Part shown: positions 10,073 to 35,409 of the stretch, one piece after another
Layout: every line of letters begins with the position of its first letter
Position numbering within the stretch: the first letter of the stretch is position 1
From: an uncultured Clostridia bacterium
Lineage (GTDB): Bacteria; Bacillota; Clostridia; Christensenellales; UBA3700
DNA length: 64,000 nt
Direction of reading: 5' to 3'
Assembly: GCA_947246685.1 (NCBI GenBank)
Contig: CAMXSN010000006.1
Span: forward strand, 3,898 to 67,897
Translations under genes and position numbers: made by a program
Notes under the pieces: generated by a model
Database searches by the model: none
Told to the model about the DNA's origin: nothing
The model's input: the letters and a program-made list of their open reading frames with translations, nothing else

Positions 10073-10093
10073 AAACACCTCCCTATATCCATA

Positions 10094-11437: not shown

Positions 11438-11491
11438 TTTACCACCCCCTTGATAATTATATAATAGCATGCTTATTTCTTTTTATCAAGT

Positions 11492-11523
11492 GTGAATTAT
11501 GTAGAATTATGTAGAATTATGTA
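11492..11523. repeat. 10-bp tandem repeat (gtRgaattat x3.2) in the peptidase promoter region
   Basis: gtgaattat gtagaattat gtagaattat gta read directly from the sequence. Confidence 0.9.
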
Positions 11524-11583
11524 CTTTTATACAATATATGCATAATTTTGGCTATTATGCAGTTTAGGTCAATATAAAATAAC

Positions 11584-18919: not shown

Positions 18920-20347
18920 TCAAACTTCGTCGGCAGGCAACTCTTCCGAATTAGCGGACTGCTCTTTTGCAATAGCTCTGCGTTTATCGAGTTCTTCTTT
19001 GATAAACGCGAACCTCTCTCTGCTCAAATTCGCACGTCTCGAAAAAATTATCGAAACAAGGAATATCAATCCCGGCAGAACGCCAAGCACGATTCTTACG
19101 GCAAGCAAAGCGCCGTCAGGCTGGCGTATCACGCTGCCGTCCATGCTCTCCACGTATCCGAATGCACCGAGCACAGCCGATACGAGAGCTATGGAAATTC
19201 CGTTGGCGACCTTGTACATAAACTGCGTTATACCGTAATACGCGCCCTCTCTTCTCGAGCCGTTGACGTATTCGTCCACTTCGACTACGTCTGGCACGCT
19301 GGCGTACGGCAAAATCTGTATTGCGGACATTCCAAAGCCTGCGAAAACGCATAGAAGCACCGTACTCCAAACGATTTTTGCGGGCACGAATATCGCAAAC
19401 ACTAGCACAAAAGCCATATATGCGCACGCAAAAGTATAAACTTTGTGCTTGTTGAATTTTTCGCTCAATTTTACCCAAACGAACGACGACGCGATCGCGC
19501 ATACTAGAGGTATGGCGACAAACGCCATAGCCATAGCCCCGCCGCCAAATCCCAAAGAATCGTTGATGAAAAACATAAATACCGCCATTATTATATCGAA
19601 TCCTATCATACTAAGCAAATAACACAGCATTACGTTTCTAAATTCCGGCAATTTGAAAAACTCTTTGAGCGTAAGAAAAAATCCCTTGTCGTTGAGCTCG
19701 TTGTCGTCAACTCTTTCTTTGACGTTTGCGGCGCAAAGCAACATTATGACAATAGATATAAACGCAAACACACCGGCCGATAGCAGATATGCCTTCCTTG
19801 AACTGCCCAGCAACTGATAAAACAGGCTCTCCTGTCCGTCTGCAAACAACGCAAAAAGCGCCGCGCCCATAATTATACCGACGTTGGCAAGCGCGATTCT
19901 TATTCCGTTGAGAGAAGTGCGCTCGTCGTAATTGCCAGTCATATTGGCAGTTATCGCGTTATAGGGTATGTATACGACCGTCCATGCCGTATTGAAGAGC
20001 ATATAAGCCAGCGTATAATAAATCATCTTGCCGATTTGCGCTCCGTCGCCGAAAGGCGCAAGCCACAGCAGGATAAACGCCAATCCGTACGGCGCCGCGC
20101 CAAACAGCATATAGACTCTGCGCTTACCCCACTTGCTCTTAGTCTTGTCGGATATTCTGCCCATAAAATAATCCGTGAGCGCGTCCCAAAACTTGGCAAT
20201 CAAAAATACAGCCGAAGCCAACTCGGCTTTAAGCCCTCCCACGTTGACAAAAAAATAAAGCAGATAAAAAGAGATCGCCGCAAACATAATGTTGGCGGAC
20301 AAATCTCCTAATCCGTAAAAAAACTTTTCTTTGAATTTCAATTTCAT
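18920..20347 (-). CDS. GPH-family sugar:cation symporter (MelB/YicJ-like)
   Basis: Start MKLKFKEKFFYGLGD at 20347. GRISDKTKSKWGKRRVYML is the GPH signature loop. About 12 TM spans. It begins 35 nt after the AAA+ stop with no intervening terminator. Confidence 0.8.
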   Translation of the reverse strand: MKLKFKEKFFYGLGDLSANIMFAAISFYLLYFFVNVGGLKAELASAVFLIAKFWDALTDYFMGRISDKTKSKWGKRRVYMLFGAAPYGLAFILLWLAPFGDGAQIGKMIYYTLAYMLFNTAWTVVYIPYNAITANMTGNYDERTSLNGIRIALANVGIIMGAALFALFADGQESLFYQLLGSSRKAYLLSAGVFAFISIVIMLLCAANVKERVDDNELNDKGFFLTLKEFFKLPEFRNVMLCYLLSMIGFDIIMAVFMFFINDSLGFGGGAMAMAFVAIPLVCAIASSFVWVKLSEKFNKHKVYTFACAYMAFVLVFAIFVPAKIVWSTVLLCVFAGFGMSAIQILPYASVPDVVEVDEYVNGSRREGAYYGITQFMYKVANGISIALVSAVLGAFGYVESMDGSVIRQPDGALLAVRIVLGVLPGLIFLVSIIFSRRANLSRERFAFIKEELDKRRAIAKEQSANSEELPADEV

Positions 20348-20382
20348 AATTTCACTTCCGTGCATGCCAAGCGCTGACGCTA

Positions 20383-21537
20383 TCAATGCGTGTTGCGAAA
20401 ATTCTCGTAATCATCGAGCAACTCCGCGCTGATACTCGGCGGAATCTTGTTGAACGCTTTTTCAAACATATCCGCTCTGAGAGGGATAGGACTAGAGCTT
20501 CCGCTTTGCTGAATTTCTTCGAGAGCGCATCTGCAGGCTTCCTCCACTATTCCGCATATATCTGCGGCAGAATAATACGCCGTCGTGCGGATATTGCCCT
20601 TCTTATCTTGTTCCGCCGTGAACGTCTCGGTCATATCTACGATCTCTTCCACCGTGATATCTTCTAATTCTATACCGCTGAGTTTGCTCTCTATGATAGC
20701 TTTTTTCGCGCCGAAATCGGGAGGCGTGACGTGTATCAAATGAGAAAATCTCTTATATCTGAGATAAGCGGGATCTATCACGTCGGGACGGTTGGTCGCC
20801 GCGACCATTATTCTCTTGGAACCGTCCACGCCGAATCCGTTGATTCTCTGCAGAAGTTCGGTCGTAACGGCAGCCTTGTAATCTTTGGTATCCTGTGTAC
20901 GTTTGCTGAAAATAGATTCGCATTCGTCAACAAACAGTATCGCGCCGTCGGGACATGCGTCGATTTCTTCGAATATCTGTTTGACTGCCTGCTCGGATTC
21001 GCCGACATAGGACTTGAAGATATCGGCGGGCGTAACGATGAACAACGGTAATTTCATTGCGTTGGCGATAGCCTCGGCAAACATTGTCTTACCCGTACCG
21101 GGCGCGCCGTACATAAGCATACCCAGACCGCCTTCTATCTTGTAATATTCGAGTATCGACGGATTCTGCGCCATAAATATAAAACTTCTGACCAATGCTT
21201 TGACGTTGTCCAAACCCTTGACGTCGTCGAGAGTTGTATCGGGCACTTTGCTCTTGATGACCGAGCCGTAACCTGCCGCCGCGTCGCTGAGCTGCTTGTA
21301 AAACAACTTGTATTTCTCGCTCAGCAATCTGTCTGTGCTTCTCACGGAAAGCGTGCGCGCAATTTGCGCCGCCTGAGAATATTTGGCGCGCAATACGTTG
21401 CGTTCCTCGTCGGACAGATCTTTTTTATCCTTCCTGCCGTTTAGGACGGAACGTATCTCGTCTGTGACTTTGCGGAGCGAGTTTTCCAACTCTTCCACGC
21501 CGCTGTCTTCGGTATTTCTTTTTTTATCCGCTGCCAT
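20383..21537 (-). CDS. classical-clade AAA+ ATPase with helical N-domain (Vps4/katanin-like single cassette)
   Basis: Walker A GAPGTGKT, pore loop KSYVGES, Walker B ILFVDECE and sensor-1 VAATNRPD. SRH IDPAYLRYKRFSHLIHVTPPD has no Pro-Gly and so resembles the Vps4 RRRFE type. The ~120-aa charged helical N-terminus precedes the LDDVKGLDNVK linker. RBS GAGGAG. Confidence 0.85.
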   Translation of the reverse strand: MAADKKRNTEDSGVEELENSLRKVTDEIRSVLNGRKDKKDLSDEERNVLRAKYSQAAQIARTLSVRSTDRLLSEKYKLFYKQLSDAAAGYGSVIKSKVPDTTLDDVKGLDNVKALVRSFIFMAQNPSILEYYKIEGGLGMLMYGAPGTGKTMFAEAIANAMKLPLFIVTPADIFKSYVGESEQAVKQIFEEIDACPDGAILFVDECESIFSKRTQDTKDYKAAVTTELLQRINGFGVDGSKRIMVAATNRPDVIDPAYLRYKRFSHLIHVTPPDFGAKKAIIESKLSGIELEDITVEEIVDMTETFTAEQDKKGNIRTTAYYSAADICGIVEEACRCALEEIQQSGSSSPIPLRADMFEKAFNKIPPSISAELLDDYENFRNTH

Positions 21538-21547
21538 TGTCGTCTCC

Positions 21548-22267
21548 TCAGATTATGTCGTCTATATTGATATCCCCGTCGGAACCCTTGTCCGCGCCCG
21601 TATCGGGAGCCGCGGAAGGAGCGGCGGACGAATCTTCTGCAGTTTCCCCGTTCGCCTCTGCGCGGTATTTCGCAAGCTGCTTGGAAGCCTCGTTCTGATA
21701 GCCTGCCATGACGTCGTTGCTTTTCCCGTCCGATTTTGCCATTGACTTTTTGAGCTTTTTATCGAATCCGCTCATTGCCACCAACATAGCGTTGGCAATA
21801 TTGCCGTATCCGTTGACCATATCCATAATGGCTTTCATACGGTTACTGTTCATCTTGACGAATTTTTTGATCTTGCGTCTCTGTTTCATCCTGCCTCTTG
21901 CAGAATACTGCTTGTAATTGTCAAGGCTCATCATCTCGTCGATGAATTTGAACGTATCGTCCATTATGTTGATTGTCTGCGACAGCACCTGCATTGCCTC
22001 TTTCATGGAAAACATCATTCCCACGACGTTCTGCAAGCTGAAAGTAACTGTGTAAAACATCGTCAGCACTCTGGTGTTGAAATGATCGGCGCCGTATTGA
22101 CGCTCGCTCTCAACGACTTTGCGCGCCAGATTTTCCACGGATTTCTCCAATTCGGATTTCTTACCCTCTAAAATCTTACCGTCGAGTTTTCTGAGATTTT
22201 CTTTTTGCATTTCGCTGTATGGATTGGAGAGCCTTTCTCCTCTCTCTCTGTTTCTTTCTCTTGCCAT
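21548..22267 (-). CDS. 239-aa helical protein with basic N-terminus and acidic disordered C-tail ending DGDINIDDII (ESCRT-III/PspA-like architecture, unproven)
   Basis: RBS GGGAGAA. N-terminus MARERNRERGER, long predicted helices, then Ala/Pro/Asp-rich tail SSAAPSAAPDTGADKGSDGDINIDDII. No sequence motif I can assign to a family. Confidence 0.7.
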   Translation of the reverse strand: MARERNRERGERLSNPYSEMQKENLRKLDGKILEGKKSELEKSVENLARKVVESERQYGADHFNTRVLTMFYTVTFSLQNVVGMMFSMKEAMQVLSQTINIMDDTFKFIDEMMSLDNYKQYSARGRMKQRRKIKKFVKMNSNRMKAIMDMVNGYGNIANAMLVAMSGFDKKLKKSMAKSDGKSNDVMAGYQNEASKQLAKYRAEANGETAEDSSAAPSAAPDTGADKGSDGDINIDDII

Positions 22268-22282
22268 AATTTTTTCTCCCGA

Positions 22283-23797
22283 TTAAAACTGATTGTTGAT
22301 GATGTCATTTATCTGTATGTCGCCGTCCGCCTCTTCTAAATCTTCAGACTGCTCTTGCTTATCCGCCGCGTCTTCTTTGGGGGCGGAAGTCTTTCTTGCA
22401 AATTTACGGCGTCTTTCTTCCATTCTCTTTCTCATCTCTTCTTTTTCTTTTGCTCTGTCCTCGCTCTGCTTGTTTGCAGTTACGTATGTTTGCTCTTTCT
22501 CCATAAGTTTGTTGATAGTTGCAAACCGCTCGTCGGTCATAGCCATGTGTTTTGTCTGCAGAGCAACGTTTTCCATAATATTGTCATAATAACTTATAGC
22601 GAGCGTAATATCCGACTCGGACGCGCCGTAACTCAATATATCAAGAAACTGCCTGAAATCTATATATGCGAACATAGAATAAAACAAGTTGGGTTCTATC
22701 TGCTGATACATAGTGTAGATATGTTGCAATCTCTTGAATTTGGAGAGCAGTCTGCGCATAGCGAGCATATTATTGTTCATCATATTGATACTAGCCCTAT
22801 ATTGCTCTCTTTCCATCTCTCTGATTTCCATATCCTGTTCGAGCATGGTGATTTGAGTATCCGCTTCTTCTTCCATTATTTCGCCTTCGTCGAGAGCCGC
22901 TATTACGTCGGATATATTCTTCTGAATTTCCGCGATATCGGCGTTGATCTGTTTGACTTTCTCGTATGCGTCGTTCTGTACGCTGAACTGCTCTTCAAAT
23001 GATGCCAATCTTGCAAAGAACGCGTCGCCTTTTTCTTTGACGCTCGCAATCTTTGAGAATCCCGAGAATACGTCTTCCTGATATTTGACGATATCTTTAT
23101 CCTTTGCCTGATTTCTCTTATTGACCGCCTTGGTCAGTTCGCACCATTTGTCAGCCTCGTCCAGAGCCTGTCTGAGATGGTCGTTGACGGCGTCGAATAT
23201 CATATTCCTGCCTACGTAATCTCTCCACGCGAACAGACCGTAGGAGCTGTCGCCGAGCAAATTTGCGGCGGCGTCCGCAGCGTCCAACGACGAATTGTCA
23301 AACACGCCGTCAACTTTCTCTCTCAATTCTTTGAGCATATCTTTGGACGCGATAAGAATGCCTTTCTTGTATTCGCTCTTTTCCTCGTAAATCACGTTGT
23401 CTATTCCCATCATAGAATCGTCGATATATTTCAATACTTCTTTCTTGATGTCTGCCATATTCTTTTCTCCTTTTCCCAATTTTATCTTTTTGAAAATCTG
23501 TTCTTTTTTTTCTCTGTATCCGTCAAGTTTCAGCGCCGCGTTGTATTTTGAGAGCAGCGTAGCCATTTCCGTCAGCTCGAAAATAGCGTTTTTGAGATTG
23601 CCGTCGAATCCCTTGTTGATCCCTTCTCGCAAAAGCGACTCGATATCTTCTCTTATTTCGTCGGAAAAATCTTGACAGCGATTGCTGTCGTAACCGTTGT
23701 ATTCTATATCCTTAAACTTTCTTGCGTAACTTATTTTGTTGTCTTCGAGTATACCGACAAGCTTATCCAGCCTTATCAATTCTTCTCCTCCTCGCAT
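22283..23797 (-). CDS. 504-aa coiled-coil protein with acidic C-tail ending DGDIQINDIINNQF
   Basis: All-helical, charge-rich sequence. The likely true start is TTG 23779, preceded by GAGGAGGAG and overlapping the upstream TGA as TTGA. The ATG at 23797 is the track start. Confidence 0.7.
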   Translation of the reverse strand: MRGGEELIRLDKLVGILEDNKISYARKFKDIEYNGYDSNRCQDFSDEIREDIESLLREGINKGFDGNLKNAIFELTEMATLLSKYNAALKLDGYREKKEQIFKKIKLGKGEKNMADIKKEVLKYIDDSMMGIDNVIYEEKSEYKKGILIASKDMLKELREKVDGVFDNSSLDAADAAANLLGDSSYGLFAWRDYVGRNMIFDAVNDHLRQALDEADKWCELTKAVNKRNQAKDKDIVKYQEDVFSGFSKIASVKEKGDAFFARLASFEEQFSVQNDAYEKVKQINADIAEIQKNISDVIAALDEGEIMEEEADTQITMLEQDMEIREMEREQYRASINMMNNNMLAMRRLLSKFKRLQHIYTMYQQIEPNLFYSMFAYIDFRQFLDILSYGASESDITLAISYYDNIMENVALQTKHMAMTDERFATINKLMEKEQTYVTANKQSEDRAKEKEEMRKRMEERRRKFARKTSAPKEDAADKQEQSEDLEEADGDIQINDIINNQF

Positions 23798-24924
23798 ACG
23801 TCGGAGACGAATTTATCCGTCTCTTTTTTGGACGTTCTGCCTTTCTCCGAATATTTATAAAAATCGTCGTCGTAAAAAACGCACGAATTGTATCTGCCCG
23901 CTTTTATAAGCCGCTTAATATCCGCGTTGCCGTTGTCTTCCAAGCATTTGGCTATGCCGGCAATGGTTCTTTTTTTGAGATATTTATGTCCGCCGCGCGC
24001 ATTTACGAAACACATATAAACTCCGCTGTCGGGACAGTCGCTCACGTACTGCGCCACGGCGTTGGAATTCTTAAGCTCGTAAAATTTGCCGTCGATCTCT
24101 TTGTCGTCGTATGCTTTTGCCATTTTAAGACGCAGATCTCTGCCTATGCTTTCAAGCACGGAAAAGCCGTTGTCCTCCTCGGAAAACAGACGCACGCACT
24201 CTTCTTTTGAAAGTTTGAAAATGCCGAAAACAGGAGCGCGCTCCTCGTCCGTACAACTGCGCAATGTGGCAAAAGCCACGCTTGCCGCGTCCTCGTCCTC
24301 CGCCCGTTCGCCGTATAACAGATCAAATTTATCGTAATCTCCTCCGAGATCCGTTATCTTCTCTGCCAAAGCCGCGCGCAGTTCGTCAAGACTCTCATAT
24401 CCGTCGAATTGTCTCTTGACAGCGATCTCGCGCGGAACGTTTTTTAACATATCTATCAAATATCCTGCGCACTGCAGTTTGATATCCGTCAGTTCGTCGA
24501 CGTAACGGTCGTCTCCTTCGGGAGTGTGCACGCCTCTATGAACGTTGAAAAGCACGGCTTTGTAATAAAAATACGCCACGCGCCATCTCTCGGCGCTGCC
24601 CGTATTGAAATCCACGTAGCCCCTGTCATAGTAATACCCCATACGCATAAGCGCTGAAGGATGAAACATAAACGCCGCTTCATAACACAGATTGACCGCT
24701 TTATCGAGATATTTGAATCTCGTCCTCTTGTCTTCGTTGGAAGACGTGAGCCATTTGAAATAATATTCCTCGGAGCGAACGAACAGCTCTCTGTTGAGCG
24801 CATTGATCTCCAGCTCCGTGTCCGTATCGGGGAATACGTCCTTTTTGCAATGCGGACAGCACCACCTGCCGTCATACAGCTCGAGCGGTCTGTCTATATC
24901 TTGATTGCAATTTCCGCATTTCAT
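23776..24924 (-). CDS. 382-aa protein with N-terminal Zn-ribbon, one Sel1/TPR-like repeat and an unknown C-terminal domain
   Basis: RBS AAGGAG. MKCGNCNQ...CCPHCKK is a four-Cys ribbon. AAFMFHPSALMRMGYYYDRGYVDFNTGSAERWRVAYFYYKAV fits the Sel1 repeat pattern. Confidence 0.65.
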   Translation of the reverse strand: MKCGNCNQDIDRPLELYDGRWCCPHCKKDVFPDTDTELEINALNRELFVRSEEYYFKWLTSSNEDKRTRFKYLDKAVNLCYEAAFMFHPSALMRMGYYYDRGYVDFNTGSAERWRVAYFYYKAVLFNVHRGVHTPEGDDRYVDELTDIKLQCAGYLIDMLKNVPREIAVKRQFDGYESLDELRAALAEKITDLGGDYDKFDLLYGERAEDEDAASVAFATLRSCTDEERAPVFGIFKLSKEECVRLFSEEDNGFSVLESIGRDLRLKMAKAYDDKEIDGKFYELKNSNAVAQYVSDCPDSGVYMCFVNARGGHKYLKKRTIAGIAKCLEDNGNADIKRLIKAGRYNSCVFYDDDFYKYSEKGRTSKKETDKFVSDVCEEEKN

Positions 24925-24938: not shown

Positions 24939-27900
24939 TTAAGACGCCTTTCGCTCGATCTTGAAATCAATAAGCGTGTTTGTGAATTCATAATTAACCG
25001 ACGATACCGATGCCGAGACCGAATAATTGCCTACCGCGGTCGGCGCGCTCGCAAGCAGCCTGCCCTTGGAATCGTAATACGCATATCCGTTTAACTTGAT
25101 ATCCGAAGAATACTCTTTGCCGTCCTTGACTATCGTAGGAATGCCGGACGCGGTGTTCCACTGCAACGCGACGCTCTTTTTATTGATGATAAAATCGCAC
25201 GATTCATATTTAACGTCATAATTATTTATTACGCCGCTCTCTGGCAAGCTCAATGTGAGAGTGTATTTGCCGGCGTTTTTAGCGCTTATCGCACTGCCGC
25301 CGTATATAGGCGTCCCGAAATCTTCTTTCTTATCCTTTGTTGCAAGACCGCTCAACGTAAAGCCGAAATTGCCGCCGGTCTTGCCGTCGTAAGTCTTTGC
25401 CGACGCAACGGCTTTCGCCACAAGAGTACGTTTGGTTATCTCAAAATCCTTGGAGTCGTCGCCGATAAGTTGATAATTATCCGCATAAACGCCGCCCAAA
25501 GCGACCTGCGCCGTATACTTGCCGACGTTGAGTTGGGCGGAAGTATACTTCAGCGAAGAGATCATTGCCGTTTGCTGATTTGCAACCGCGTTTGTTATAG
25601 AGGACACTCTTGCGTTGTGATTCTGACCGTCGTAAACAAACTTGGAGTATTTCTCGTCCCATACAACTCGTACTTGGCGTTTAACTATCGAATAGGACGT
25701 TTCAACGGGCGCGTCAAGTCTGTAATTGCCATCAATAGGAAGATCCGCGCCGACGGTATAGCCGTCTCCGACGTTGACGTTGTTTTCATACCCGTAATAA
25801 TCTATCGGCACGGGCTTATCTCTGTCCAGCGCGCCTATTACCATCAAGTCGGGGTGCTGCGCGACGCCGGCGTAAACCAATTGAACGTTCTCCGCCCATT
25901 TTGCCGTCACGGTAGCCCTTTCGATGACGTAATCGCAGTTGCGATTGACGATCGTATAATTGCCGTTTGCGGTGCTGACTCTAGCGACGTAAGCGCCTGC
26001 GTCAATACCGGCGCCCGTCACGTCGGTTTGAATTTGACCGTCTTTTGCTATACCTGTTACGGTAGCGTTAGGCGCCTTGTAACTTCCGTCGTATACGAAT
26101 TGAGTATTAGACCACACCGCCTCAACTTCTATGGGAAGTATCTCGTAGGCAAAACTTCCCCCCGAGCCTATTTTGTAACAGTCTGCTCCGACCGTAAGTT
26201 CTATATTCGCCGTGTATCTGCCGGCATCGGAATTGATATGATTGGATATAGCGTATTCGATACCGTCGCCTTCAATCAACTGCGACGTATCGTAATCTAC
26301 GTAAACTTCTTTATTCTCGCCGTCGTATACGTCCTGATCAAAATCCGTCCAGACAAAATCCAAAGCCTTTTTATCAACCGACACGTCTATGACGAAAGTC
26401 TCTTGCGAACTGAGAGAGGTTTCTTCGGAAGTCGCTACGACTATGACGGAAAACGCTCCGCTCATGCTCGGAAGAACTCTGTCGTATATCATTTGAGCGC
26501 CGCTCTGCATAAACGCGTCTTTGCAATACCATGAATACGACAAATCATATCCCGACTTAGGCGCCTTTGCCGCCGCCGACAGAATCAACGTATCGCCGTA
26601 AACGTACTTCTCTGCGTTGGGCGTAATTTTGCCGTCATAAGGTTTTTTCAGCGTCCATTCCGGTTCGACTGCCGTCGCGTTGTAATATCCGTTCGCATTG
26701 CGTCTGAGGTAATCGGCGAGACTTGAAAATTCGTTGACGCCGCATTTCCATTTGATATCGAATCCATCTCTCGACAAATCTTTGAGGAGCTCGTCCGCGC
26801 GGCTGAGAGCCGTCAATCTGTAATTGCGTATACTGCCGCCTGCCTCTATCGTCTTGATCGAATCGTCAAAACTGAACTTGGTATCGTTGCCGTCGCCTAT
26901 CTCCACGGCGAAAACTCTCTCGAAATTAACTTGGGCTTTAACGACGTTGTTAACTATGCTTACGCCTTGCAGATTTCCTTGAGACGTGACTATTTCTTTG
27001 AGCATATAGCCGTTGTTTTGATAATTCCAATACAAATCTTCGTCGTCGGACTTATCAGAATATTTTACGTAATCGACTTTGTCGCCGCAGAACGACAAAT
27101 CAAACTTATTGCCTTTTTTGCCTATCCACGTGGGAATATAGCTGTTGTCGGTCAATATCAAATCGTCTGCGTTGTAGGCAAACGTAACGTACGCTTCGTC
27201 GTCGGCAAGCCCCGTAGGATAAACGTTGTTTGCCAATACCACGCTCTGTCTTTCCGAATATAATTCCTGTCTGTAACTGTCGATGAGCTTTTTGTTTACG
27301 CCCAATTTCAACGTGTCGTTCAACTCGCCTAAATAATATTTCTCGTCGTACAGACGCATCCTTTTTTCTCCGACTATTTCGACGCTGGCTATGGATGCGT
27401 CGGCAAACAGAGCGTAACTGACAGCCGTTACGTCCTTGCCGTTGAAAGTTAGAGGTACGCGCACCTTATCGCTTCTGCCCTCGAGCACTCCGTCGGCAAA
27501 ATACGAATCGCTGGCTTGGTCGTATTTGAAAGCCAAACTCCTGTATTCGTCTACGTAACCCTGTCCGAGAAAACCGTAATCCATTATATATACCGAATAC
27601 GCTCCCGATATCGCCACCGTTAACGCGCTCATGGCTATAACGGTCGCTTTGACCCACGGTTTTTTCTTGAGTATCGGATAAAGCGCCGCTATCGTAACGG
27701 CAACAAAACTGACCGCATGCGCAACTGCGAACAAAGCCGTCGCCGCGCCTGTCGAATAGGTCAGCTCCCCGCCGCTCATAACTCCCAACGTAGAACACGC
27801 GAATATAAACGTCAAAGCAAGATAAACTATCCACACCGTGAGCGAATATCTAAAACGGAAATTGGTAAACACTATGCCCACGATAAACAAAGCGTCAAAG

Positions 27901-28097
27901 ATCAGATTGAACACTGGCAGCACGATAAAACGCGCGTCGAAGCCCGATACAGCACACACTATCAGCAACACGAGGTCGCACACCGCCGCGGTAATGGAAG
28001 CGATGAGCAAAAATAGCTTGCTGCCGCCGAACCGCTTGCGGTTGGCGGAAGAATAATCTATATTTTCGCTGCCTGAATATAAGCCGTTTCTATTCAT
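24939..28097 (-). CDS. 1052-aa polytopic membrane protein with a large extracytoplasmic region ending in six MBG/YDG-type repeats
   Basis: RBS AAGGAGG and an ATGA overlap with the upstream gene. Five hydrophobic helices lie in aa ~29-170. The last 477 aa form six ~75-85-aa repeats, each with xVxW...(V/T)YDG...G(K/R)Y...NY...(F/Y)xIxK. Confidence 0.75.
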   Translation of the reverse strand: MNRNGLYSGSENIDYSSANRKRFGGSKLFLLIASITAAVCDLVLLIVCAVSGFDARFIVLPVFNLIFDALFIVGIVFTNFRFRYSLTVWIVYLALTFIFACSTLGVMSGGELTYSTGAATALFAVAHAVSFVAVTIAALYPILKKKPWVKATVIAMSALTVAISGAYSVYIMDYGFLGQGYVDEYRSLAFKYDQASDSYFADGVLEGRSDKVRVPLTFNGKDVTAVSYALFADASIASVEIVGEKRMRLYDEKYYLGELNDTLKLGVNKKLIDSYRQELYSERQSVVLANNVYPTGLADDEAYVTFAYNADDLILTDNSYIPTWIGKKGNKFDLSFCGDKVDYVKYSDKSDDEDLYWNYQNNGYMLKEIVTSQGNLQGVSIVNNVVKAQVNFERVFAVEIGDGNDTKFSFDDSIKTIEAGGSIRNYRLTALSRADELLKDLSRDGFDIKWKCGVNEFSSLADYLRRNANGYYNATAVEPEWTLKKPYDGKITPNAEKYVYGDTLILSAAAKAPKSGYDLSYSWYCKDAFMQSGAQMIYDRVLPSMSGAFSVIVVATSEETSLSSQETFVIDVSVDKKALDFVWTDFDQDVYDGENKEVYVDYDTSQLIEGDGIEYAISNHINSDAGRYTANIELTVGADCYKIGSGGSFAYEILPIEVEAVWSNTQFVYDGSYKAPNATVTGIAKDGQIQTDVTGAGIDAGAYVARVSTANGNYTIVNRNCDYVIERATVTAKWAENVQLVYAGVAQHPDLMVIGALDRDKPVPIDYYGYENNVNVGDGYTVGADLPIDGNYRLDAPVETSYSIVKRQVRVVWDEKYSKFVYDGQNHNARVSSITNAVANQQTAMISSLKYTSAQLNVGKYTAQVALGGVYADNYQLIGDDSKDFEITKRTLVAKAVASAKTYDGKTGGNFGFTLSGLATKDKKEDFGTPIYGGSAISAKNAGKYTLTLSLPESGVINNYDVKYESCDFIINKKSVALQWNTASGIPTIVKDGKEYSSDIKLNGYAYYDSKGRLLASAPTAVGNYSVSASVSSVNYEFTNTLIDFKIERKAS

Positions 28098-29752
28098 TTC
28101 GCTGCCTCCTTGTCGGAATTGCCCTTAGGCGCGCTGAGATAACCGCTGCTCTTGGCGGTATCTTTATTAAATATAAGCACAGATTCGTCGATCATAAACA
28201 TAATGCAATCTTCGTCTTCCTTGCAATATTTCTTTTTGTTGAGACTGCCTATTCTCTTGACCAAAGACAGCATTCCCGAATATTTGCGATATAGCTTATT
28301 ACCCTGTTTGTATTCCGCGTCGTCTATCGCGTCTATGCCCAATTTGGTTATTTTGCAGAAATCGCAAACGTAATCGGTCGAATTAGTTTCGGAGTAAAAC
28401 GATCTTCCGCAACATGAACAACGCGCAATTTTATCTTTAGGCACCAACGTCATTCTGTCTCTGACAAAGGCAAGATTCTTAGTATATCTAGCTATTCCGT
28501 CTTCGCAGACGTATACGACCTCGGGATGCGGACAGCGTTTGCATTTTCTCACTCCGCCGTCAAGCACGGCAGTATCGTCCTCGCAAACGTATTTGACGCA
28601 TCTGCCGGCAAGTCTCGCGTTCTCCGAGCAACTAATCCTGAGCAAGTGCGAAGTAAACGTTCCGCCGGATTTTATCTGTCTTATTATCTCTTCGCTAAGA
28701 CCGAGCCCTTGATGGGCAGGATTTATCAACGCTGTTTTCTCTACTCCGTCAAATACGTATTTGATCTTATTGAACTCGATAAGAGTAGATTTTTTGCGGC
28801 AGCTGTTGCAATAAAGACTCAACCTGCCTCCTATGCCCAATATCGCTTTGAGCGCGACCTTGCCGTCTAGTCTTACGTCGTAGTTATCTTTTCTCCACTG
28901 AAAATGCAGGACGTTGAGAAGAGACAGATTTAGGCACGTCAAATCAACGTTGTCGTTGGGTCCCTTCTCCACCATAATTCCCACGGCGTTCTCGTCTCTG
29001 CCGTCGGCTAACACGACGTAATCCGACAAATCCGCTCCTTGAGAATTACCGTCGGGATATACGAGTTTGTCCAAAGCATTGACGACGGTATCGGTAAGTT
29101 CCGCGCTGTTTTGCATAAGTTCATCTTCTTCCCTTTCCGAATCGAACGTGGAAAGATACGAGTTGATGACTTCGGCTTCTTCCTTGCCGTAAGGAAGTAT
29201 TTTTTTACCTACTTTTCTAAAAAACACTTTGCCTAGCACCGGCACCGCTTCGCCCGTTCCGTCGGTGATCTCCAACCTCAACGAGGCTCCGTAAACGTCT
29301 TCCAAACTCTCCGACTCGTCGCCGCGTCTAATATCGAATACGTAATTATCAAAGAAGCTCGATAGCACGTTGTTTATCAGCGCACAATGACTTTCTATCA
29401 ACTCGTTGGATATTACGTGCCTTCTGGGGCTGTATTCGACGATAGAATAATTGCGGTGAAAATGTTCCTTGACCGACTCGACGAACATAAGCCATTCGGC
29501 GGTGTCGTTTTTGACGCTCTCGCCTCTGAACATTCCAAACCATGACGCCCCGTTGTCGCCCATTACCGCATTGAACGAACCGTCGTCGCGCGCAGCCGCG
29601 CCGCGAGCCAATATAAATTCATGCGAGGGAGTAACTATCCTGTCTGCGTCCGCCGACAAAACCGATCCTTCTTTTATGCAATTTTCGCGGTACAATTTCA
29701 CCACGCTGTCAAACGTCTTGCCGTATTCGCTTCCAATATAAATCTTAGCCAT
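28094..29752 (-). CDS. 552-aa hypothetical protein with several CxxC Zn-ribbon-like pairs in the C-terminal half
   Basis: RBS GGAGGCGGT. CNSCRKK, CKRCPHPE and CSCCGRSF...CDFC. No other recognisable motif. Confidence 0.65.
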   Translation of the reverse strand: MAKIYIGSEYGKTFDSVVKLYRENCIKEGSVLSADADRIVTPSHEFILARGAAARDDGSFNAVMGDNGASWFGMFRGESVKNDTAEWLMFVESVKEHFHRNYSIVEYSPRRHVISNELIESHCALINNVLSSFFDNYVFDIRRGDESESLEDVYGASLRLEITDGTGEAVPVLGKVFFRKVGKKILPYGKEEAEVINSYLSTFDSEREEDELMQNSAELTDTVVNALDKLVYPDGNSQGADLSDYVVLADGRDENAVGIMVEKGPNDNVDLTCLNLSLLNVLHFQWRKDNYDVRLDGKVALKAILGIGGRLSLYCNSCRKKSTLIEFNKIKYVFDGVEKTALINPAHQGLGLSEEIIRQIKSGGTFTSHLLRISCSENARLAGRCVKYVCEDDTAVLDGGVRKCKRCPHPEVVYVCEDGIARYTKNLAFVRDRMTLVPKDKIARCSCCGRSFYSETNSTDYVCDFCKITKLGIDAIDDAEYKQGNKLYRKYSGMLSLVKRIGSLNKKKYCKEDEDCIMFMIDESVLIFNKDTAKSSGYLSAPKGNSDKEAAK

Positions 29753-29763: not shown

Positions 29764-32571
29764 TCAGTTATCCATGGACAGAATTTCTTTTATATCCGCC
29801 ACTTTGTCAGATTCTTTCCTTAGATTGTTGCAGAAAGACTCGCCGTTGTCGTGTTTGAAATCCCACGACGCCTTGATATACGCCGCAAACGTCCTTGCAA
29901 TCACGGGATATAGATAACCTCTTTCGTGATTTTGTTCGCACTTGGGACAACGCGCAATCCATTTCTCGTCAAACGATATTACGTGAGGTCTGGGAGAACA
30001 CTGCGAATAATCGCACGATCCGCACAGTTCAACGCTGGCTTTACCTACGCCGTACCTGCACTTCTGCGGACATGACGAACGGCTGGAACAGCTTGCGCAC
30101 AGACTCTTGAGTTCAACTGCGGAAATATTGCGATTGAGCGCATAAGCGTTGAGCACGCTGCACTTACCTTTGAGCTCGCTCTTGAATCTCTGACAGTGCA
30201 ACATCGAGCATATCTTGGAACAGTAATAATCTCTGTCGCCTTTATCTCCGCTGCTGCACAGCGATCCTCTGTCCGTATCCGTCTTGGATATACACGTGTA
30301 TCCGCCGTCGCCCACGCTTCTGCCGAATACCGAACCGCACGTGCCGCACTTGAATTCGTACACGTTTATCTCTTCCATAACCGTGCCTCGGGGATCATCC
30401 TGAATACACTGCCTTTTTGCTATACAGAAAAGATTGTTTTTCTTCTTGCGCGCATCGTATTCTTCTTTTGTATAAAGCGCCACTTTGCCGCAAGCGGGAC
30501 ATCTGAGCGCAACCATACGCTCGTTGTTACTGCCCGCGATAATCGTCGCGTCGCCGCTGTTGCTGGAAAGCAATCCTATACTGTTGAAGTACGCAAGAGC
30601 AAAACCTTCGAGCTTATTCATATCTGCAAACGAATATATCTTGACGTCGCTAGACTGTCCGAGACGGAATATTCTGCCTATTCTCTGATCCATAGACAAC
30701 GGATCGGGCGTGACCTGGAAGTTGATGATGATTCTGCTGTCCTGCAAGTTTACGCCCTCGGTAAACGACGGGTCGGTAACGAGTAACACCGCGTCTTCTT
30801 TGGATGTAAATTCGTCTATAACCTGTCTTTTGTTATCGTCTCTGCCTATTAATATCCTTGATGAAAATTCGCCGTCCGCGGCAAGTTCCGCACCGACTTT
30901 TTCCCATTGACGGTACCCTTTGCTTGTCTTGGGCAAGTCGTAATCGAAAAATACCAACGCTCTCTCGCCCGGATGTTCGCGCAGAACGGATTTCATCTCC
31001 TCGAATTTATACGCAAACGTATCTTTATCAGCCGCGGTGAAGATAAATTTGTTGTCGCATTCTCCCGCGGCTTTTCTTGAGAATTGCTCCCAATAAAATT
31101 TAAGCGAATTTTTCTTTTCAAAAACTTTTTCGTCCCCGAAAGATTTTAGTCCGCCCAAAATGTTGGGCACCAATATCTCAGCATATTTCTCCTGAGCGTC
31201 GCCGTGCAAGGAAATTTCCTGCGCATAGTCTTTCAGCGAATATGCTCTGCCGTCGACGTTGAGCGCTCGATTCCCGTTGATTACGTCCAGACTTGCTTCC
31301 ATGTCGCAACCGTCTCCGTATTTGAACCTTATTATCTTAGGAGCGTTTTCTTTGACAGGGAAGAAATATCTGTTGAAAACGAATCTGGTCTTGGTAAGTT
31401 CGTTGGGCTGACGGATCATTATGGTGCGCAACACGCCGTTGTGATAAGCGCTCGCTACTCTTTTGAGCACCTCGGAGCGTATTGGACCGCTGTCTTTAAG
31501 AAACTCTTCTCTTAGCAATTGTTTTTCGCCCTGAGTATAAGATTGAAATTTCTCGTATTCTCCCTTTGCTTTCAAAAAAGCTTCAAACTGAGCTGAGTAA
31601 TTGTTGTCTACTTCAAACTTCTTAACCGCGGTGATAAACTCTGCCACGGTATTCGCGCCTCTGCACACGTTCTGCTTGTAATAGAGTTTCTCTTTTCTGT
31701 ATTCGTCAGTGCGCTCTTTATCCTCTTTTATATCGAAATCGTCGGGATTGCCGCCCTTACATCTGATAAAATACCACAGTCTGAACATCTTTTCCAGATT
31801 GCCGGAATGAGGCGTAGCGGAAAGAAGCACGCAGTAAGTGCTGTTGGCTTTTTTCTTTGTCTGCATAAGCAAAGACAGTAGTTTCATAGCCTTTGCATAT
31901 CTGCCTTCTTCCGCGCACAGATGATGAGCCTCGTCGACGACAACGACGTCGAATAACACGTTTTTAATCGCGCTTTCTCGCCAGTTGACGAAATCCTCCG
32001 CCTTGACGATAAACGGCTTTGTCGGTCTGACGGTCGCTCCGTCCGACAAAGTCTCGCACTCGCCGAACTCCGCGTCGGCGACTCCGACAAGCACGCCTTT
32101 GCCCAGTCCGAATTTATTTTCAAGCACGTCTATCCAGCTGTCGTAAACCTGCGACGGCACGACCAACAACAGCGATTTCATCTTACCTCTGACGGCAAGC
32201 TCGCTCAGCACTGCGCACGCCTCAAAAGTTTTGCCGCTGCCCACAACGTCCGCGAGCAGACCGAAGCCGCGCAGCTCCTTGAGAAAATGCGTCGCCGCAA
32301 GTTGCTGATGTCTCAATATTACCTGATTGCTGTTGACGCTCCTATGCACATGCGATTTGGTTATTCCGTAATCTCCGCCGTCGGATTCGTATACTTCCGG
32401 CGCTATTTTCAACGCGGCGAAATCGTCGTATCTGTCCAGTTCTTCGGCGCAGTGGGTAAGCTCGGCTATCCGCGCGTCGAAGGGGCGTATCTCACCTGCA
32501 ATCTTCGACCTCTGAATATCCCTGTCAAAAGCTCCGTCCGTACATTTAAGAGTAAATCTTTTCTTTTTCAT
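29764..32571 (-). CDS. SNF2-family (RapA/HepA-like) helicase/translocase with ~200-aa Cys-rich C-terminal module
   Basis: Start ATG 32571, 5 nt after GGAGGGG; the track start 32589 is a TTG. Motifs LLADVVGSGKTFEA (I), VVVDEAHH (II), LLSATPHSG (III), TEGVNLQ and QRIGRIFRLGQ (VI). The tail holds about 21 Cys, including CPAC, CGTC, CASC, CGSC and CPKC. Confidence 0.85.
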   Translation of the reverse strand: MKKKRFTLKCTDGAFDRDIQRSKIAGEIRPFDARIAELTHCAEELDRYDDFAALKIAPEVYESDGGDYGITKSHVHRSVNSNQVILRHQQLAATHFLKELRGFGLLADVVGSGKTFEACAVLSELAVRGKMKSLLLVVPSQVYDSWIDVLENKFGLGKGVLVGVADAEFGECETLSDGATVRPTKPFIVKAEDFVNWRESAIKNVLFDVVVVDEAHHLCAEEGRYAKAMKLLSLLMQTKKKANSTYCVLLSATPHSGNLEKMFRLWYFIRCKGGNPDDFDIKEDKERTDEYRKEKLYYKQNVCRGANTVAEFITAVKKFEVDNNYSAQFEAFLKAKGEYEKFQSYTQGEKQLLREEFLKDSGPIRSEVLKRVASAYHNGVLRTIMIRQPNELTKTRFVFNRYFFPVKENAPKIIRFKYGDGCDMEASLDVINGNRALNVDGRAYSLKDYAQEISLHGDAQEKYAEILVPNILGGLKSFGDEKVFEKKNSLKFYWEQFSRKAAGECDNKFIFTAADKDTFAYKFEEMKSVLREHPGERALVFFDYDLPKTSKGYRQWEKVGAELAADGEFSSRILIGRDDNKRQVIDEFTSKEDAVLLVTDPSFTEGVNLQDSRIIINFQVTPDPLSMDQRIGRIFRLGQSSDVKIYSFADMNKLEGFALAYFNSIGLLSSNSGDATIIAGSNNERMVALRCPACGKVALYTKEEYDARKKKNNLFCIAKRQCIQDDPRGTVMEEINVYEFKCGTCGSVFGRSVGDGGYTCISKTDTDRGSLCSSGDKGDRDYYCSKICSMLHCQRFKSELKGKCSVLNAYALNRNISAVELKSLCASCSSRSSCPQKCRYGVGKASVELCGSCDYSQCSPRPHVISFDEKWIARCPKCEQNHERGYLYPVIARTFAAYIKASWDFKHDNGESFCNNLRKESDKVADIKEILSMDN

Positions 32572-32585
32572 TATCCCCTCCGCCG

Positions 32586-34538
32586 TCAATCGGCTCCTTC
32601 CACGTCGAATTCCTCGACGCCTTGGAATTGAAGAACTATGTCTTTGTATCTGGCAAACTTAACGTTTGTCGGGTCGTCGGCTTTTCTTACGGCTATGGTG
32701 TCGTAAGCTCCGTTCTTGGATACGTTGTTGCGTATGAAAGGCTGCGCTCTGCCGTCTCCGTCGATCTTAACTCCCTCAAGGAAGTATAACACGCCTTTTA
32801 TCTGCACCGGTATGGGCGATTTTTTGCCTTCTTTGCAATAATAAAACAGTATCTTGCCTTTGCTCTTACCGCCCGACACCACTCGCAGACCTATCTTCGT
32901 CTGCATCTTCACGCGCTGTTCGGAGTCAGGTTCGCCTATCACGTATACTCCCGACGATTCCGTCGTAGAGAAAATCTCCTCATTGTCTACCGACCCCGAC
33001 CATCTGTCCATATATTTGAGGCTGGATTCGGTATAATACGTTCCTCCGTCGGGAGGAAGTATCTGACCTCTTTTGAGGAAAATGTCCAGTATCTTATAGT
33101 ATTTATCTCCGCGCTTGCGATATTGCCAAGTACCGTAAGACAATGCTACCGCCGTCTTGATCTCGTAATTATTGAGCGCAACGATAGCGCCGCCTACCGC
33201 GGGCGCAAACAAAGAATCTTCGTATGAAAGTATCCTGAATCCGTCGTCTCTGTTCTCGTAATCGTCAAACGTGACGACGTCGACGTTCAATCCCGCTTTG
33301 CGTAGTTTGGAGCGCAGATAACCTATCAGCCCGTAGGTCTCCGTAACTCCTCCCGACAAGAGAAGTTTGTCCACGTCTTTATTGATACTTCTGTTCAACT
33401 CCTCGATAATATAATCCGCTATCTTAGCCGCCACGCCGCAATCGCCGTCGATACCCACCGCCTTGCAAAAGTCATCTCTCGTCAACATTCTCTGCACCGT
33501 CACGTCTCTATAGAGCGATATAGGCGCTCCGTCTGGAAACACGTTGTCGTAAGTTGCGTCGGGAAGAGACAGCGCCGTCTTGACCTTTTTGATCTCGGTC
33601 ATAAACAAAAACTGTTTAGAATGCAATCCCCGCTCGGCGATATATCCGTCTTCTCCCGACGGCGGCGCGCCCGGAGTCTCTCTCGCCCCGATGCTGTCTT
33701 CTATATAATCTCTTAACGCAATGTCAAAATCGTTGCCGCCTATCTCCATAGGCTCGTTGTGACCGTCAACGCCGTCCACAAGCACGCTCTTGACCTTTCC
33801 GCCCGAAAGACTGAGTTTTGCAACGGAAATATCCTCTTCGCCCATATCGACGATAATAACGCCCTCTCCGCCGTCCAAAATACCTCTGTGAAATGCAAAA
33901 AGTCCCAGCGCTCTCGTAGATGACATTACCTTCTTAACATTAGAGCCGACCGAACGCTCTACCAAACGCGTCAACTCCTCTATGTATTCCGCGCCCGCTT
34001 TGGCAGGATAAATCAGCGAATAATCGACGCTGTCGAATGCTAGATTTCTCTGCGCTTGCAATCTCTCTATCGCAGGCAAAACAGTCTTAGAAAATAGATA
34101 ATCAAAAAACTCTTCGCACACCTGCATCGGCGTCCTGTCTGCGCAAAAAGTCATGTCGAGATCTTTGGCAAGCATCAGATTTTCGGAAATCTTGCGTTTT
34201 GTCGGAAAATAAAATTTGGGGAAATCTCTGCCTTCTCGATAACATACGCGATTGCTATCGCATACGGCTTTATCCGATCTTTTCAGAAGCAAAGACAGCA
34301 GCGTTTTGATCTTGACGACAGTAATAAAAGGTCTGTCGGTGCCTTTATACGCTTCGTCTCCGAACAGCCATCTGCCGTTGTCCTCGTCGTAATACGCTAT
34401 CGCCGACACGACCGCGCTGCCCGTGACTTCCCTGGGCGCCAACTTTCCGTATACCGCCTTATTGGATTCTTTATAGGCAAAAGCAACCTTTACTTTGTCG
34501 CTGCCGACGTCGATTGCAACCTCTAAATTACCTTGCAT
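32586..34538 (-). CDS. divergent Hsp70-like (actin-fold) ATPase with beta-rich C-terminal domain, no lid
   Basis: RBS AAAGGAG. Motifs AIDVGSDKVKVAF (phosphate-1), IIVDMGEEDISV (phosphate-2), EIGGNDFD, LLLSGGVTETYGL and PAVGGAIVA. The C-terminal ~190 aa resemble an SBD-beta (TAVALSYGTW...ILPP...). No EEVD. Confidence 0.8.
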   Translation of the reverse strand: MQGNLEVAIDVGSDKVKVAFAYKESNKAVYGKLAPREVTGSAVVSAIAYYDEDNGRWLFGDEAYKGTDRPFITVVKIKTLLSLLLKRSDKAVCDSNRVCYREGRDFPKFYFPTKRKISENLMLAKDLDMTFCADRTPMQVCEEFFDYLFSKTVLPAIERLQAQRNLAFDSVDYSLIYPAKAGAEYIEELTRLVERSVGSNVKKVMSSTRALGLFAFHRGILDGGEGVIIVDMGEEDISVAKLSLSGGKVKSVLVDGVDGHNEPMEIGGNDFDIALRDYIEDSIGARETPGAPPSGEDGYIAERGLHSKQFLFMTEIKKVKTALSLPDATYDNVFPDGAPISLYRDVTVQRMLTRDDFCKAVGIDGDCGVAAKIADYIIEELNRSINKDVDKLLLSGGVTETYGLIGYLRSKLRKAGLNVDVVTFDDYENRDDGFRILSYEDSLFAPAVGGAIVALNNYEIKTAVALSYGTWQYRKRGDKYYKILDIFLKRGQILPPDGGTYYTESSLKYMDRWSGSVDNEEIFSTTESSGVYVIGEPDSEQRVKMQTKIGLRVVSGGKSKGKILFYYCKEGKKSPIPVQIKGVLYFLEGVKIDGDGRAQPFIRNNVSKNGAYDTIAVRKADDPTNVKFARYKDIVLQFQGVEEFDVEGAD

Positions 34539-34600: not shown

Positions 34601-34629
34601 AGTATAGCACACGCTCATAAGGTTTTCAA
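34601..34629 (-). promoter_or_regulatory. strong sigma-A-type promoter of the nine-gene operon
   Basis: Minus strand reads TTGAAA - 17 nt - TATACT with a TG at the extended -10 position (GTGTGCTATACT). It lies ~60 nt upstream of the Hsp70-like ATG. Confidence 0.65.
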
Positions 34630-34730
34630 TACTATTTATTATATTATTTATACAAAGGCGTTGTAGATTTTACAAAAATATTTTACAATTTTGGCATAGA
34701 CTATTCTAATATTATCTAAGAAATTAAGGA

Positions 34731-34759
34731 AAAATTTAACCGTCGAAAAAACGACGGTT
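34731..34759 (-). terminator. rho-independent terminator insulating the operon from the upstream gene
   Basis: aaccgtcg-aaaaaa-cgacggtt hairpin, followed on the minus strand by AAATTTTT. Confidence 0.65.
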
Positions 34760-34787: not shown

Positions 34788-35270
34788 TCAAATACAAATT
34801 CCGTGCAATACGCTACCTGCCAGCAAATGCGCGGAAATAATTTCCTGCATCTCGGCACCCTTGACGTAATCTGCAAGTTCGCACAGCGTCACGCTCATTG
34901 AATTGTGTAATTCCAACAGTCTGTACATAGACTGTTTAAGCGGCATCTTCTGCACTCCGACAAATACTTCGTTTGCGAAGTTTGCCATAACGGATACCCT
35001 TATACGGTTTTTTGTCGCTACGTTCAAGATAAATTCTACGTTTTTGCGGTTACGCGAAACGAATATCCTGTCAAACTGAGCAATTATCGCCGTCATCTCC
35101 TTGCAACATCTGCAAAAGTCGGCGCACTTATCCGTCATATACACGGGAATGGGATATTGAAACAACGCCGTCCGCGTCTTTCCGGCGCCCACTCCGAGCG
35201 CGTCGTATTCTCTGTTCATATCCGCTATTTGTCCTTCGTCGGCTATCATGTCAAATTCGTTATCCTGCAT
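34788..35270 (-). CDS. hypothetical protein (160 aa)
   Basis: Clean ORF followed by its own terminator. No recognisable motifs. Contains CADFCRCC. Confidence 0.5.
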   Translation of the reverse strand: MQDNEFDMIADEGQIADMNREYDALGVGAGKTRTALFQYPIPVYMTDKCADFCRCCKEMTAIIAQFDRIFVSRNRKNVEFILNVATKNRIRVSVMANFANEVFVGVQKMPLKQSMYRLLELHNSMSVTLCELADYVKGAEMQEIISAHLLAGSVLHGICI

Positions 35271-35409
35271 ACTTTCTCCCCTATCAAGTCAATTCGATAT
35301 CATTAATATTTATTAAACAAAATATACTTTTATGCCGCGCGGGCGTTAAAAATAATAAATTGTCTTGCGTCGGTTGCAATTTGCTAAGATATTGATTATA
35401 ATAATTACT

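Follow-up and report, generated by a model that had tools for sequence, protein, structure and literature searches.

The DNA analysed here (hereafter the window) is a 64,000-nucleotide (nt) stretch from an uncultured Clostridia bacterium (GTDB order Christensenellales, UBA3700; GenBank assembly GCA_947246685.1, contig CAMXSN010000006.1, positions 3,898 to 67,897 of the forward strand). It carries an operon in which the gene for a very large membrane protein, called the giant protein below, stands among genes for an Hsp70-like ATPase, a SNF2-family ATPase and two zinc-ribbon proteins, ZnR552 and ZnR382 (Table 1). A preliminary description, made from the letters of the window, had seen a surface-protein gene embedded in an otherwise cytoplasmic ATPase operon. 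This picture holds in that no hydrophobic segment above threshold occurs in the other seven operon proteins, and the giant protein is firmly supported as the sole membrane protein of its module, but it needed revision in that the AAA+ ATPase proved to be optional and the core to comprise five genes. The start codon of the giant gene is supported because homologs, including distant ones, align from residue 1. Matches to consensus patterns ahead of the Hsp70-like gene, namely a hairpin of terminator type and sites resembling promoters, suggest that the operon begins there.

Table 1. Positions of the giant protein, its parts and the accompanying operon features in the window (aa, amino acids; AF2, AlphaFold2; HMM, hidden Markov model; Ig, immunoglobulin; K/R, lysine plus arginine; ORF, open reading frame; TM, transmembrane).
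Feature	Coordinates	Strand	Basis
Giant protein gene (1052 aa, polytopic surface protein)	24939..28097	-	ORF
Basic N-tail, predicted cytoplasmic and disordered (aa 1-25)	28023..28097	-	AF2, K/R count
Five-helix TM domain (aa 26-174)	27576..28022	-	hydropathy and AF2 helices
Membrane-proximal α/β domain of no known family, predicted extracellular (aa 175-483)	26649..27575	-	AF2
Ig-like (I-set/Hoc-like) domain (aa 484-579)	26361..26648	-	Foldseek and family profile
Six MBG/YDG-type β-sandwich repeats, distal rod (aa 580-1052)	24942..26360	-	alignment, HMM, AF2
Hsp70-like (actin-fold) ATPase, first operon gene, core	32586..34538	-	weak Pfam HSP70, E=0.008
SNF2-family ATPase with Cys-rich C-terminal module, core	29764..32589	-	Pfam SNF2-rel_dom, Helicase_C
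ZnR552, cytoplasmic 552-aa zinc-ribbon protein with 18 Cys, obligate partner	28094..29752	-	
ZnR382, cytoplasmic 382-aa protein with N-terminal zinc ribbon, obligate partner, 14 nt downstream of the giant gene	23776..24924	-	
Optional downstream module: coiled-coil proteins CC504 and CC239, classical AAA+ (Vps4-like)	20383..23797	-	Pfam AAA, E=4e-32
Likely operon boundary: hairpin resembling a terminator behind the upstream gene, followed by two promoter-like sites	34601..34759	-	consensus scan

Across 26 loci (8 from metagenomes and reference genomes, 18 from GTDB genomes) hosted by Christensenellaceae, Christensenella and unclassified Clostridia metagenome-assembled genomes (MAGs), the order Hsp70-like, SNF2, ZnR552, giant protein is the same in every case, at identities of 24-81%, and ZnR382 comes next in 25, the exception stopping at a contig end. 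Of 201 genomes of the order, just 6 (~3%), the same ones each time, gave strong E-values for the giant protein, for ZnR552 and for the Hsp70-like protein, and ~380 further genomes of the class yielded no match to the giant protein or the Hsp70-like protein; these samples are dominated by MAGs, and a negative means not found in the genomes searched. The distribution is patchy even inside one family, and the window's genome holds one copy of the giant gene. The cytoplasmic partners noticed at this one locus in the preliminary description thus accompany the homologs in all 26 loci and share their presence and absence over the 201 genomes, and the Hsp70-like protein, SNF2, ZnR552, the giant protein and ZnR382 form an obligate five-gene core. 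Translational coupling through an ATGA overlap had also been pointed out; the overlap of the ZnR552 stop with the ATG of the giant gene is present at 28094-28097, but it is not kept in all relatives. These data bear directly on the idea that an unrelated surface-protein gene is merely hitch-hiking in the operon, for which one could cite an evolutionary rate sharply unlike that of its neighbours. However, the gene overlaps or closely abuts both adjoining genes, it has diverged at synonymous sites about as much as its neighbours, and its constant position and shared presence and absence with its partners effectively refute the idea.

The membrane-embedded part of the giant protein was delineated by two approaches. 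Kyte-Doolittle hydropathy gives five hydrophobic helices (aa 29-47, 58-76, 88-106, 121-139 and 153-171), and an AlphaFold2 model of the N-terminal portion, built with 20 homologs, places helices at aa 26-51, 55-77, 82-108, 117-139 and 147-174 with a mean predicted local distance difference test (pLDDT) score of 85.6. The five helices that had previously been located at nt ~27587-28010, after a basic N-terminus, agree with this model, in which they occupy nt 27576-28022. The N-tail has a pLDDT of <50 over aa 1-24 and contains 5 K/R residues, and K27 alone is conserved family-wide. Ten K/R residues of the giant protein are predicted inside (N-tail, loops 2 and 4) vs 2 outside, and the mean over 152 family members is 8.4 inside vs 2.1 outside, as expected from the positive-inside rule. 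Because of this bias, together with the AlphaFold2 helices and the Ig and MBG folds of the ectodomain, which are matched by extracellular proteins only in Foldseek and profile comparisons, the N-terminus is predicted inside and the C-terminus outside, with ~880 aa extracellular. The same topology had been proposed in the preliminary description, and the repeats are accordingly predicted to lie outside the cell, not in the cytoplasm.

The TM domain has no match in Pfam, NCBIfam, PADLOC or PHROGs. Within it, polar residues are conserved at mid-membrane positions across 152 sequences: D41 in the first helix (80% Asp, 14% Asn), D68 in the second (92%) and H127 in the fourth (88%), with the complete triad present in 108 of the 152. 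The second loop, predicted cytoplasmic, carries the motif N79-x-R81-F82-x-Y84, conserved at 91-98% (N79 96%, R81 98%, Y84 96%). Since the triad and the loop motif are conserved in 80-98% of sequences, these patterns support a TM domain that would be more than an anchor. D41N occurs in 11 of 18 sequences lacking H127 vs 10 of 134 that retain it, a correlation among phylogenetically related and therefore not independent sequences; because D41N accompanies the loss of H127, it suggests that D41 and H127 may form a coupled buried pair.

The helical bundle is followed by the ~310-aa α/β domain, modelled with pLDDT mostly 86-95, which opens with a near-invariant GxFGQG at the outer face of the membrane and contains the invariant residues N404-D405, R443-x-G-F and W481. 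It has a Pfam match in 0 of 20 members, and in a Foldseek comparison of the N-terminal model the top 50 hits each from PDB and BFVD cover the Ig part only (~95 aa), so that both the TM bundle and the α/β domain are structurally unmatched among these hits. Set apart in this way by Pfam and the top-50 Foldseek comparison, the α/β domain is novel. The Ig domain was matched by Foldseek to CD4, CEACAM and Hoc (E 3e-5 to 1e-3), the family profile matched the Ig domain of phage Hoc (3shs) with E=4e-8, and relatives give sub-threshold Ig_2 and PKD_4 matches.

Six repeats had been reported in the last 477 aa (24942-26372), and alignment recovers six at aa 580-661, 659-733, 734-812, 814-895, 893-979 and 981-1052, in units of 72-87 aa with the common motif VYDG...G(K/R)Y...NY...(F/Y)xIxK; that account of the β-sandwiches was incomplete, however, as the Ig domain is a seventh and precedes the six. 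The repeats are too divergent for self-BLASTP, which did not find them within the giant protein, and were resolved by MAFFT and HMMs. An HMM built from the six window repeats alone recovers the tandem repeats of independent homologs with domain E-values down to 4e-17, so they are not a product of chance, and it matches every repeat of P0003, P0008 and others. Their assignment to the MBG/YDG type was right in outcome but cannot be read from the window's own Pfam score, the best being MBG_3 with 14.1 bits where 25 are required (E=0.05), in the last repeat only. In relatives, P0003 scores 282.9 bits to MBG_2 over 10 stretches, the best MBG_2 match reaches E=9e-86, and YDG reaches 96.5 bits (E=1e-27), both kinds of match falling at the same positions as those of the window HMM; Pfam matches among 20 members are to MBG_2 (7), YDG (5), MBG_3 (4) and MBG (3). 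An AlphaFold2 model of aa 477-1052 (pLDDT 89.9) is all-β, with β-sandwiches strung like beads, and Foldseek relates this rod to tandem-Ig extracellular proteins (GhpA, MDGA1) and to the S-layer proteins Sap and SbsB; the family profile gives a weak match (E=0.056) to the repeat of Limosilactobacillus reuteri LAR_0958/CmbA (4ng0). Because the window HMM matches the repeats of Pfam-positive relatives, membership in the MBG/YDG superfamily is supported by transitive homology, together with the predicted fold.

Searches with the N-terminal 575 aa returned 252 homolog clusters at 50% identity, 183 of them at E<1e-30, and the matches are always N-terminal, in proteins of ~950-2120 aa; the family is wholly unannotated. 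Weak matches restricted to the TM region in two further Clostridia genomes (G520 and G301) were judged to be chance, the ORF in G520 being a multi-pass protein that by eye resembles an EamA/DMT-like transporter. A comparison of repeat number among relatives, as the preliminary description had advised, gave 4-19 repeats (median 8) over 153 full-length members. Protein length is accounted for by repeat count (r=0.96), and in all of them the first repeat begins close to residue 587, a pattern that reads as a constant base bearing a rod whose length varies. No tip domain caps the rod, family proteins ending a median of 5 residues past the last repeat, and from the typical size of Ig domains the rod of the giant protein would measure ~25-30 nm if extended. 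Neither an LPXTG signal nor a hydrophobic tail was found at the C-terminus of the giant protein, only 1 of 153 members has LPxT[GAN] near its end, and the N-terminus forms a five-helix bundle in place of a signal peptide.

A literature search on MBG/YDG repeats and LAR_0958 returned adhesin papers (CmbA) only, with no description of this family. One alternative is an ordinary colonisation adhesin. Its operon neighbours would then serve biogenesis or quality control, the Hsp70-like protein (and AAA+ where present) keeping the ectodomain export-competent or extracting failed copies. MBG/YDG repeats are indeed typical of gut adhesins such as CmbA/LAR_0958 (PMC13339910), with the reservation that the 4ng0 match is weak; the operon encodes chaperone-type ATPases, and the ectodomain evolves fast under purifying selection, like that of many surface proteins. 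However, many loci have the giant protein without the AAA+ and coiled-coil genes, and other MBG proteins (P0018-P0020) carry an ordinary signal peptide or are anchored at the C-terminus, and they lie outside any such operon. To our knowledge, neither SNF2 DNA motors nor zinc-ribbon proteins have a role in membrane-protein export. The conserved intramembrane polar residues and cytoplasmic loop would also be superfluous in a passive anchor, and we infer from them, and from the coupling to flanking zinc-ribbon genes, a transmitting or anchoring role in preference to passive adhesion. The adhesin explanation is, in our view, improbable.

No other protein of the operon evolves as fast as the giant protein. 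At a SNF2 mean identity of 88%, the corresponding values are 76% for the Hsp70-like protein, 75% for ZnR552 and 81% for ZnR382, and within the giant protein 67% for the TM domain, 47% for the α/β domain and 53% for the rod. Against a 98%-identical strain the giant gene shows 43 synonymous and 18 non-synonymous changes, a ratio of non-synonymous to synonymous rates (dN/dS) of 0.115. Over eight strain or species pairs, analysed gene- or region-wide by the Nei-Gojobori method, dN/dS is 0.12-0.19 for the whole giant protein, with its TM domain at 0.03-0.10 and its ectodomain at 0.10-0.23; the partners give 0.01-0.13, or 0.01-0.09 apart from the closest pair, where very few substitutions yield 0.13 for SNF2 and the Hsp70-like protein. 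An arms race with gene-wide diversifying selection on the ectodomain was considered and rejected on its ratio of 0.10-0.23, and no hypervariable segment was found in the giant protein at the strain level. The pattern would fit a functional surface protein under relaxed purifying constraint.

These rates also bear on the suggestion that the rod is a decoy or mask, mimicking or covering a phage receptor or a target of host immunity, with the cytoplasmic genes only regulating its expression. Surface exposure, the variation of 4-19 repeats, the fastest rate in the operon and a patchy distribution would all suit such a role. Yet dN/dS lies far below 1 and hypervariability at the strain level was not seen, the best-conserved parts are the TM and membrane-proximal domains, which a decoy would not need, and strict co-occurrence with four cytoplasmic proteins exceeds what regulation would require. 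We consider a decoy very improbable.

Downstream of the core, the gene content varies. CC504, CC239 and AAA+ are present in the window, in L004 and L017 and in the close clade, and absent from L002, L018-L020 and L034-L038. An alternative set pairs a CC5xx protein with one of ~655 aa and may or may not include a 1533-aa Upf1-like helicase that carries a restriction endonuclease (REase) domain; it occurs in L001, L005, L034, L037 and L038, and no further downstream module genes are found in L002 and L018-L020. Where it ends the operon (L001:18425-23026, L005:18667-22905), the Upf1-like helicase is a ~1530-1560-aa protein (DUF4011, AAA_11, AAA_12) with a C-terminal REase_MTES_1575 domain and replaces AAA+; in L001 a CC239-like gene comes after it. 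The ~655-aa protein replaces CC239 and AAA+ in a distant clade (L034:16713-18683, L001:16446-18428, L037:12578-14536, L038:16053-18014), and the L034 and L001 copies have no Pfam match. ZnR552 and ZnR382 have no family match, and sequence searches of PDB with them gave nothing meaningful. SNF2 has PADLOC matches of a generic BrxH-, DrmD- and DpdE-like kind, and both it and AAA+ match generic helicase or ATPase models only, far under equivalog cut-offs.

Because the giant gene clusters with four cytoplasmic proteins in every relative examined, its product is probably the outward-facing part of an undescribed envelope-spanning machine of gut Christensenellales. Our preference, held tentatively and at somewhat less than even odds, is that the giant protein may sense events at the surface for, or anchor, a new conflict (defence-like) module built on SNF2. 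The likeness to conflict systems stems from a patchy distribution, a SNF2 core, swappable add-ons and apparent dispensability in one strain; the similarity of SNF2 to DrmD, BrxH and DpdE, although generic, and the DUF4011/AAA_11/AAA_12/REase helicase add-on are conflict-like in character, and the fastest-evolving ectodomain and repeat number of 4-19 can be counted on the same side. Hsp70-like proteins have a precedent in predicted defence systems (PMC11090510). A literature search on systems of Hsp70-like, SNF2 and membrane proteins returned analogies only (Zorya, CoCoNuT) and no description of this module.

The strain in question is known from a metagenome (98.8% identical over 15.3 kb) and has a premature stop at codon 182 of SNF2 (L021:5509-8334, corresponding to 29764-32589 of the window); the rest of the operon on that contig reads as intact, CC504 running off the contig end. 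Either the allele has lost its function naturally or the stop is an artefact of assembly, and the observation suggests that the module is dispensable.

Under the sensor or anchor reading, the rod would extend through or past the wall and bind or feel something at the surface, and the five-helix bundle would relay a conformational signal inward, aided by the Asp/Asp/His cluster buried within it. On the cytoplasmic side, the tail and the NxRFxY loop could then hold or release the zinc-ribbon adaptors, which would bring the SNF2 and Hsp70-like proteins to nucleic acid at the membrane or activate them there, in a conflict or defence-like role against incoming DNA or phage that would resemble Zorya and Kiwa in logic, not in ancestry. 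The swappable downstream modules (AAA+ with coiled-coils, or the Upf1-like helicase-nuclease) would act as accessories. In its most complete form, this proposal makes the giant protein the sensing subunit of a new trans-envelope, surface-triggered machine for nucleic-acid defence or DNA handling, with the rod as feeler that, together with the novel membrane-proximal domain, would pick up phage or foreign contact at the wall, the Asp/Asp/His cluster as relay, zinc ribbons as adaptors, and SNF2 and Hsp70-like activity at the entry site; such a complete scheme is speculative and, taken as a whole, rather unlikely.

Several observations weigh against a sensor or anchor of a defence-like module. 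First, no signature of a defence island or mobile element was found, and the flanks are housekeeping genes both in the window and in relatives: alanine racemase, a class IV aminotransferase, a major facilitator superfamily (MFS) transporter and arabinofuranosidase on one side of the window operon and signal peptidase and DUF711 on the other, and nrdDG or the hrcA-grpE-dnaK-dnaJ operon adjoining the modules of relatives. Second, no relatives were found in phage and plasmid collections searched by tblastn or in a scan of IMG/VR contigs, and PADLOC-DB 2.0 and NCBIfam assign 0 families to the giant protein, ZnR552, ZnR382 and the Hsp70-like protein, for which PHROGs gave no match either. Third, dN/dS of 0.12-0.19 gives no sign of overall diversifying selection. 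Fourth, the polar triad might be a purely structural buried pair, and the topology is itself a prediction. Finally, the part facing the cytoplasm is tiny, a ~25-aa poorly conserved tail and two loops of 6-9 aa, and signalling to the partners is therefore conjecture.

Some of the same facts would suit a wall or surface tether for a DNA-handling machine outside defence, serving DNA uptake or export, chromosome-membrane attachment or transcription-coupled membrane insertion, in which the complex would be held in the envelope by its ectodomain, leaving the SNF2 motor to act on the cell's own or incoming DNA. The obligate partnership with a SNF2 motor, the purifying selection on all genes, the housekeeping neighbours, a locus that is stable in the close clade with an MFS neighbour 86-90% identical, and the missing mobile-element or defence-island signature all favour such a tether. 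On the other hand, a module in only ~3% of sampled genomes of the order is a poor fit to a basic cellular function, a five-helix monomer has no channel-like family signature, the optional helicase-nuclease add-on resembles an effector, and a near-identical strain has a stop codon in SNF2. We regard the tether as unlikely.

The surroundings of the module offer further observations. The AAA+ stop codon overlaps, at 20383-20386, a TTG from which the MFS sugar-transporter gene (18920-20386) may start. Ten of 13 close-clade loci keep this neighbour in synteny at 86-90% identity, L029, L032 and L039 being those where it was not found, and it may therefore be co-transcribed with the operon. Upstream of the operon lie genes for 160 aa (34788-35270, minus strand) and 567 aa (35365-37068, plus strand) that have no Pfam match and are conserved in the near-identical strain with a dN/dS of 0.03-0.06, indicating strong purifying selection. 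In relatives, hrcA-grpE-dnaK-dnaJ is downstream of the module in L002 (L002:16205-20916) and L003, and a near-identical module is found in L019; dnaJ, identified by Pfam, is directly upstream in L034 (L034:33-3079), and L038 has an ORF of equal size upstream (L038:50-2949). The module thus stands beside housekeeping chaperone genes in several distant lineages, which is curious given its own Hsp70-like gene. Elsewhere in the window, two stretches are AT-rich, 10001-12000 (GC 0.35) and 62001-64000 (GC 0.27) vs ~0.46 elsewhere; the first contains a Peptidase_C39_2-like 458-aa ORF (10094-11470) flanked by two 230-aa paralogs.

Proteins with MBG/YDG repeats are usually interpreted as passive adhesins. 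Those known (PF17883, PF18676, PF18887, PF18657), for example L. reuteri CmbA/LAR_0958 (PDB 4ng0), share with the giant protein tandem ~70-85-aa all-β Ig-like repeats with YDG, GxY and NY elements, and both are extracellular (predicted for the giant protein), belong to gut Firmicutes and vary in repeat number. Unlike these adhesins, which are stand-alone genes with a signal peptide and an LPXTG/sortase or other C-terminal anchor, the giant protein has an N-terminal five-helix domain with buried Asp/Asp/His and a novel 310-aa domain, is without a sorting signal, and is obligately linked to SNF2, Hsp70-like and zinc-ribbon genes. Here, then, an MBG/YDG rod is fused to a conserved polytopic domain that was never seen without SNF2, the Hsp70-like protein and two zinc-ribbon proteins. 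Its D41/D68/H127 triad, NxRFxY loop, GxFGQG motif and variable repeat number offer handles for experiments.

Type III CoCoNuTs combine an Hsp70-like protein, CnuD, with nucleotide- and substrate-binding domains, and an Upf1-like helicase, CnuH, in what is predicted to be restriction-type defence (PMC11090510). The module resembles them in having an operon with a divergent Hsp70-like ATPase, joined in L001 and L005 by an Upf1-like helicase too, but it is without the McrB GTPase, McrC and HEPN, whereas CoCoNuTs are without a membrane or surface subunit.

In Zorya, the ZorAB membrane complex operates with ZorC and the SNF2 effector ZorD (PMC11946911). Likeness to this system lies in an envelope-facing membrane component paired with a cytoplasmic SNF2 motor and in soluble partners that differ between subtypes or versions. 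A buried acidic residue in the membrane part of ZorB is functionally central. The giant protein was unmatched by the PADLOC models of ZorA and ZorB (MotAB-like) at E<=0.1, and the matches to ZorD cover the generic SNF2 core only; unlike Zorya, the giant protein has neither an OmpA-like peptidoglycan-binding domain nor a long cytoplasmic tail, SNF2 here has a Cys-rich tail and not a nuclease, and the module was found only in the Clostridia order searched. Kiwa consists of a four-TM membrane sensor, KwaA, and a DNA-binding effector, KwaB. Polytopic KwaA is proposed to sense the site of phage attachment or entry and to control a cytoplasmic DNA-directed partner, which is the point of likeness; there is no homology (PADLOC negative), KwaA is without a large ectodomain, and the partners are wholly different. 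Surface-to-cytoplasm sensing has so far been worked out mainly in these two Gram-negative systems, Zorya and Kiwa, and the Christensenellaceae are a gut family linked to host health and heritability. If the coupling proves functional, the giant protein would provide an example, in gut Clostridia, of a rod outside the cell that is connected to a nucleic-acid motor in the cytoplasm.

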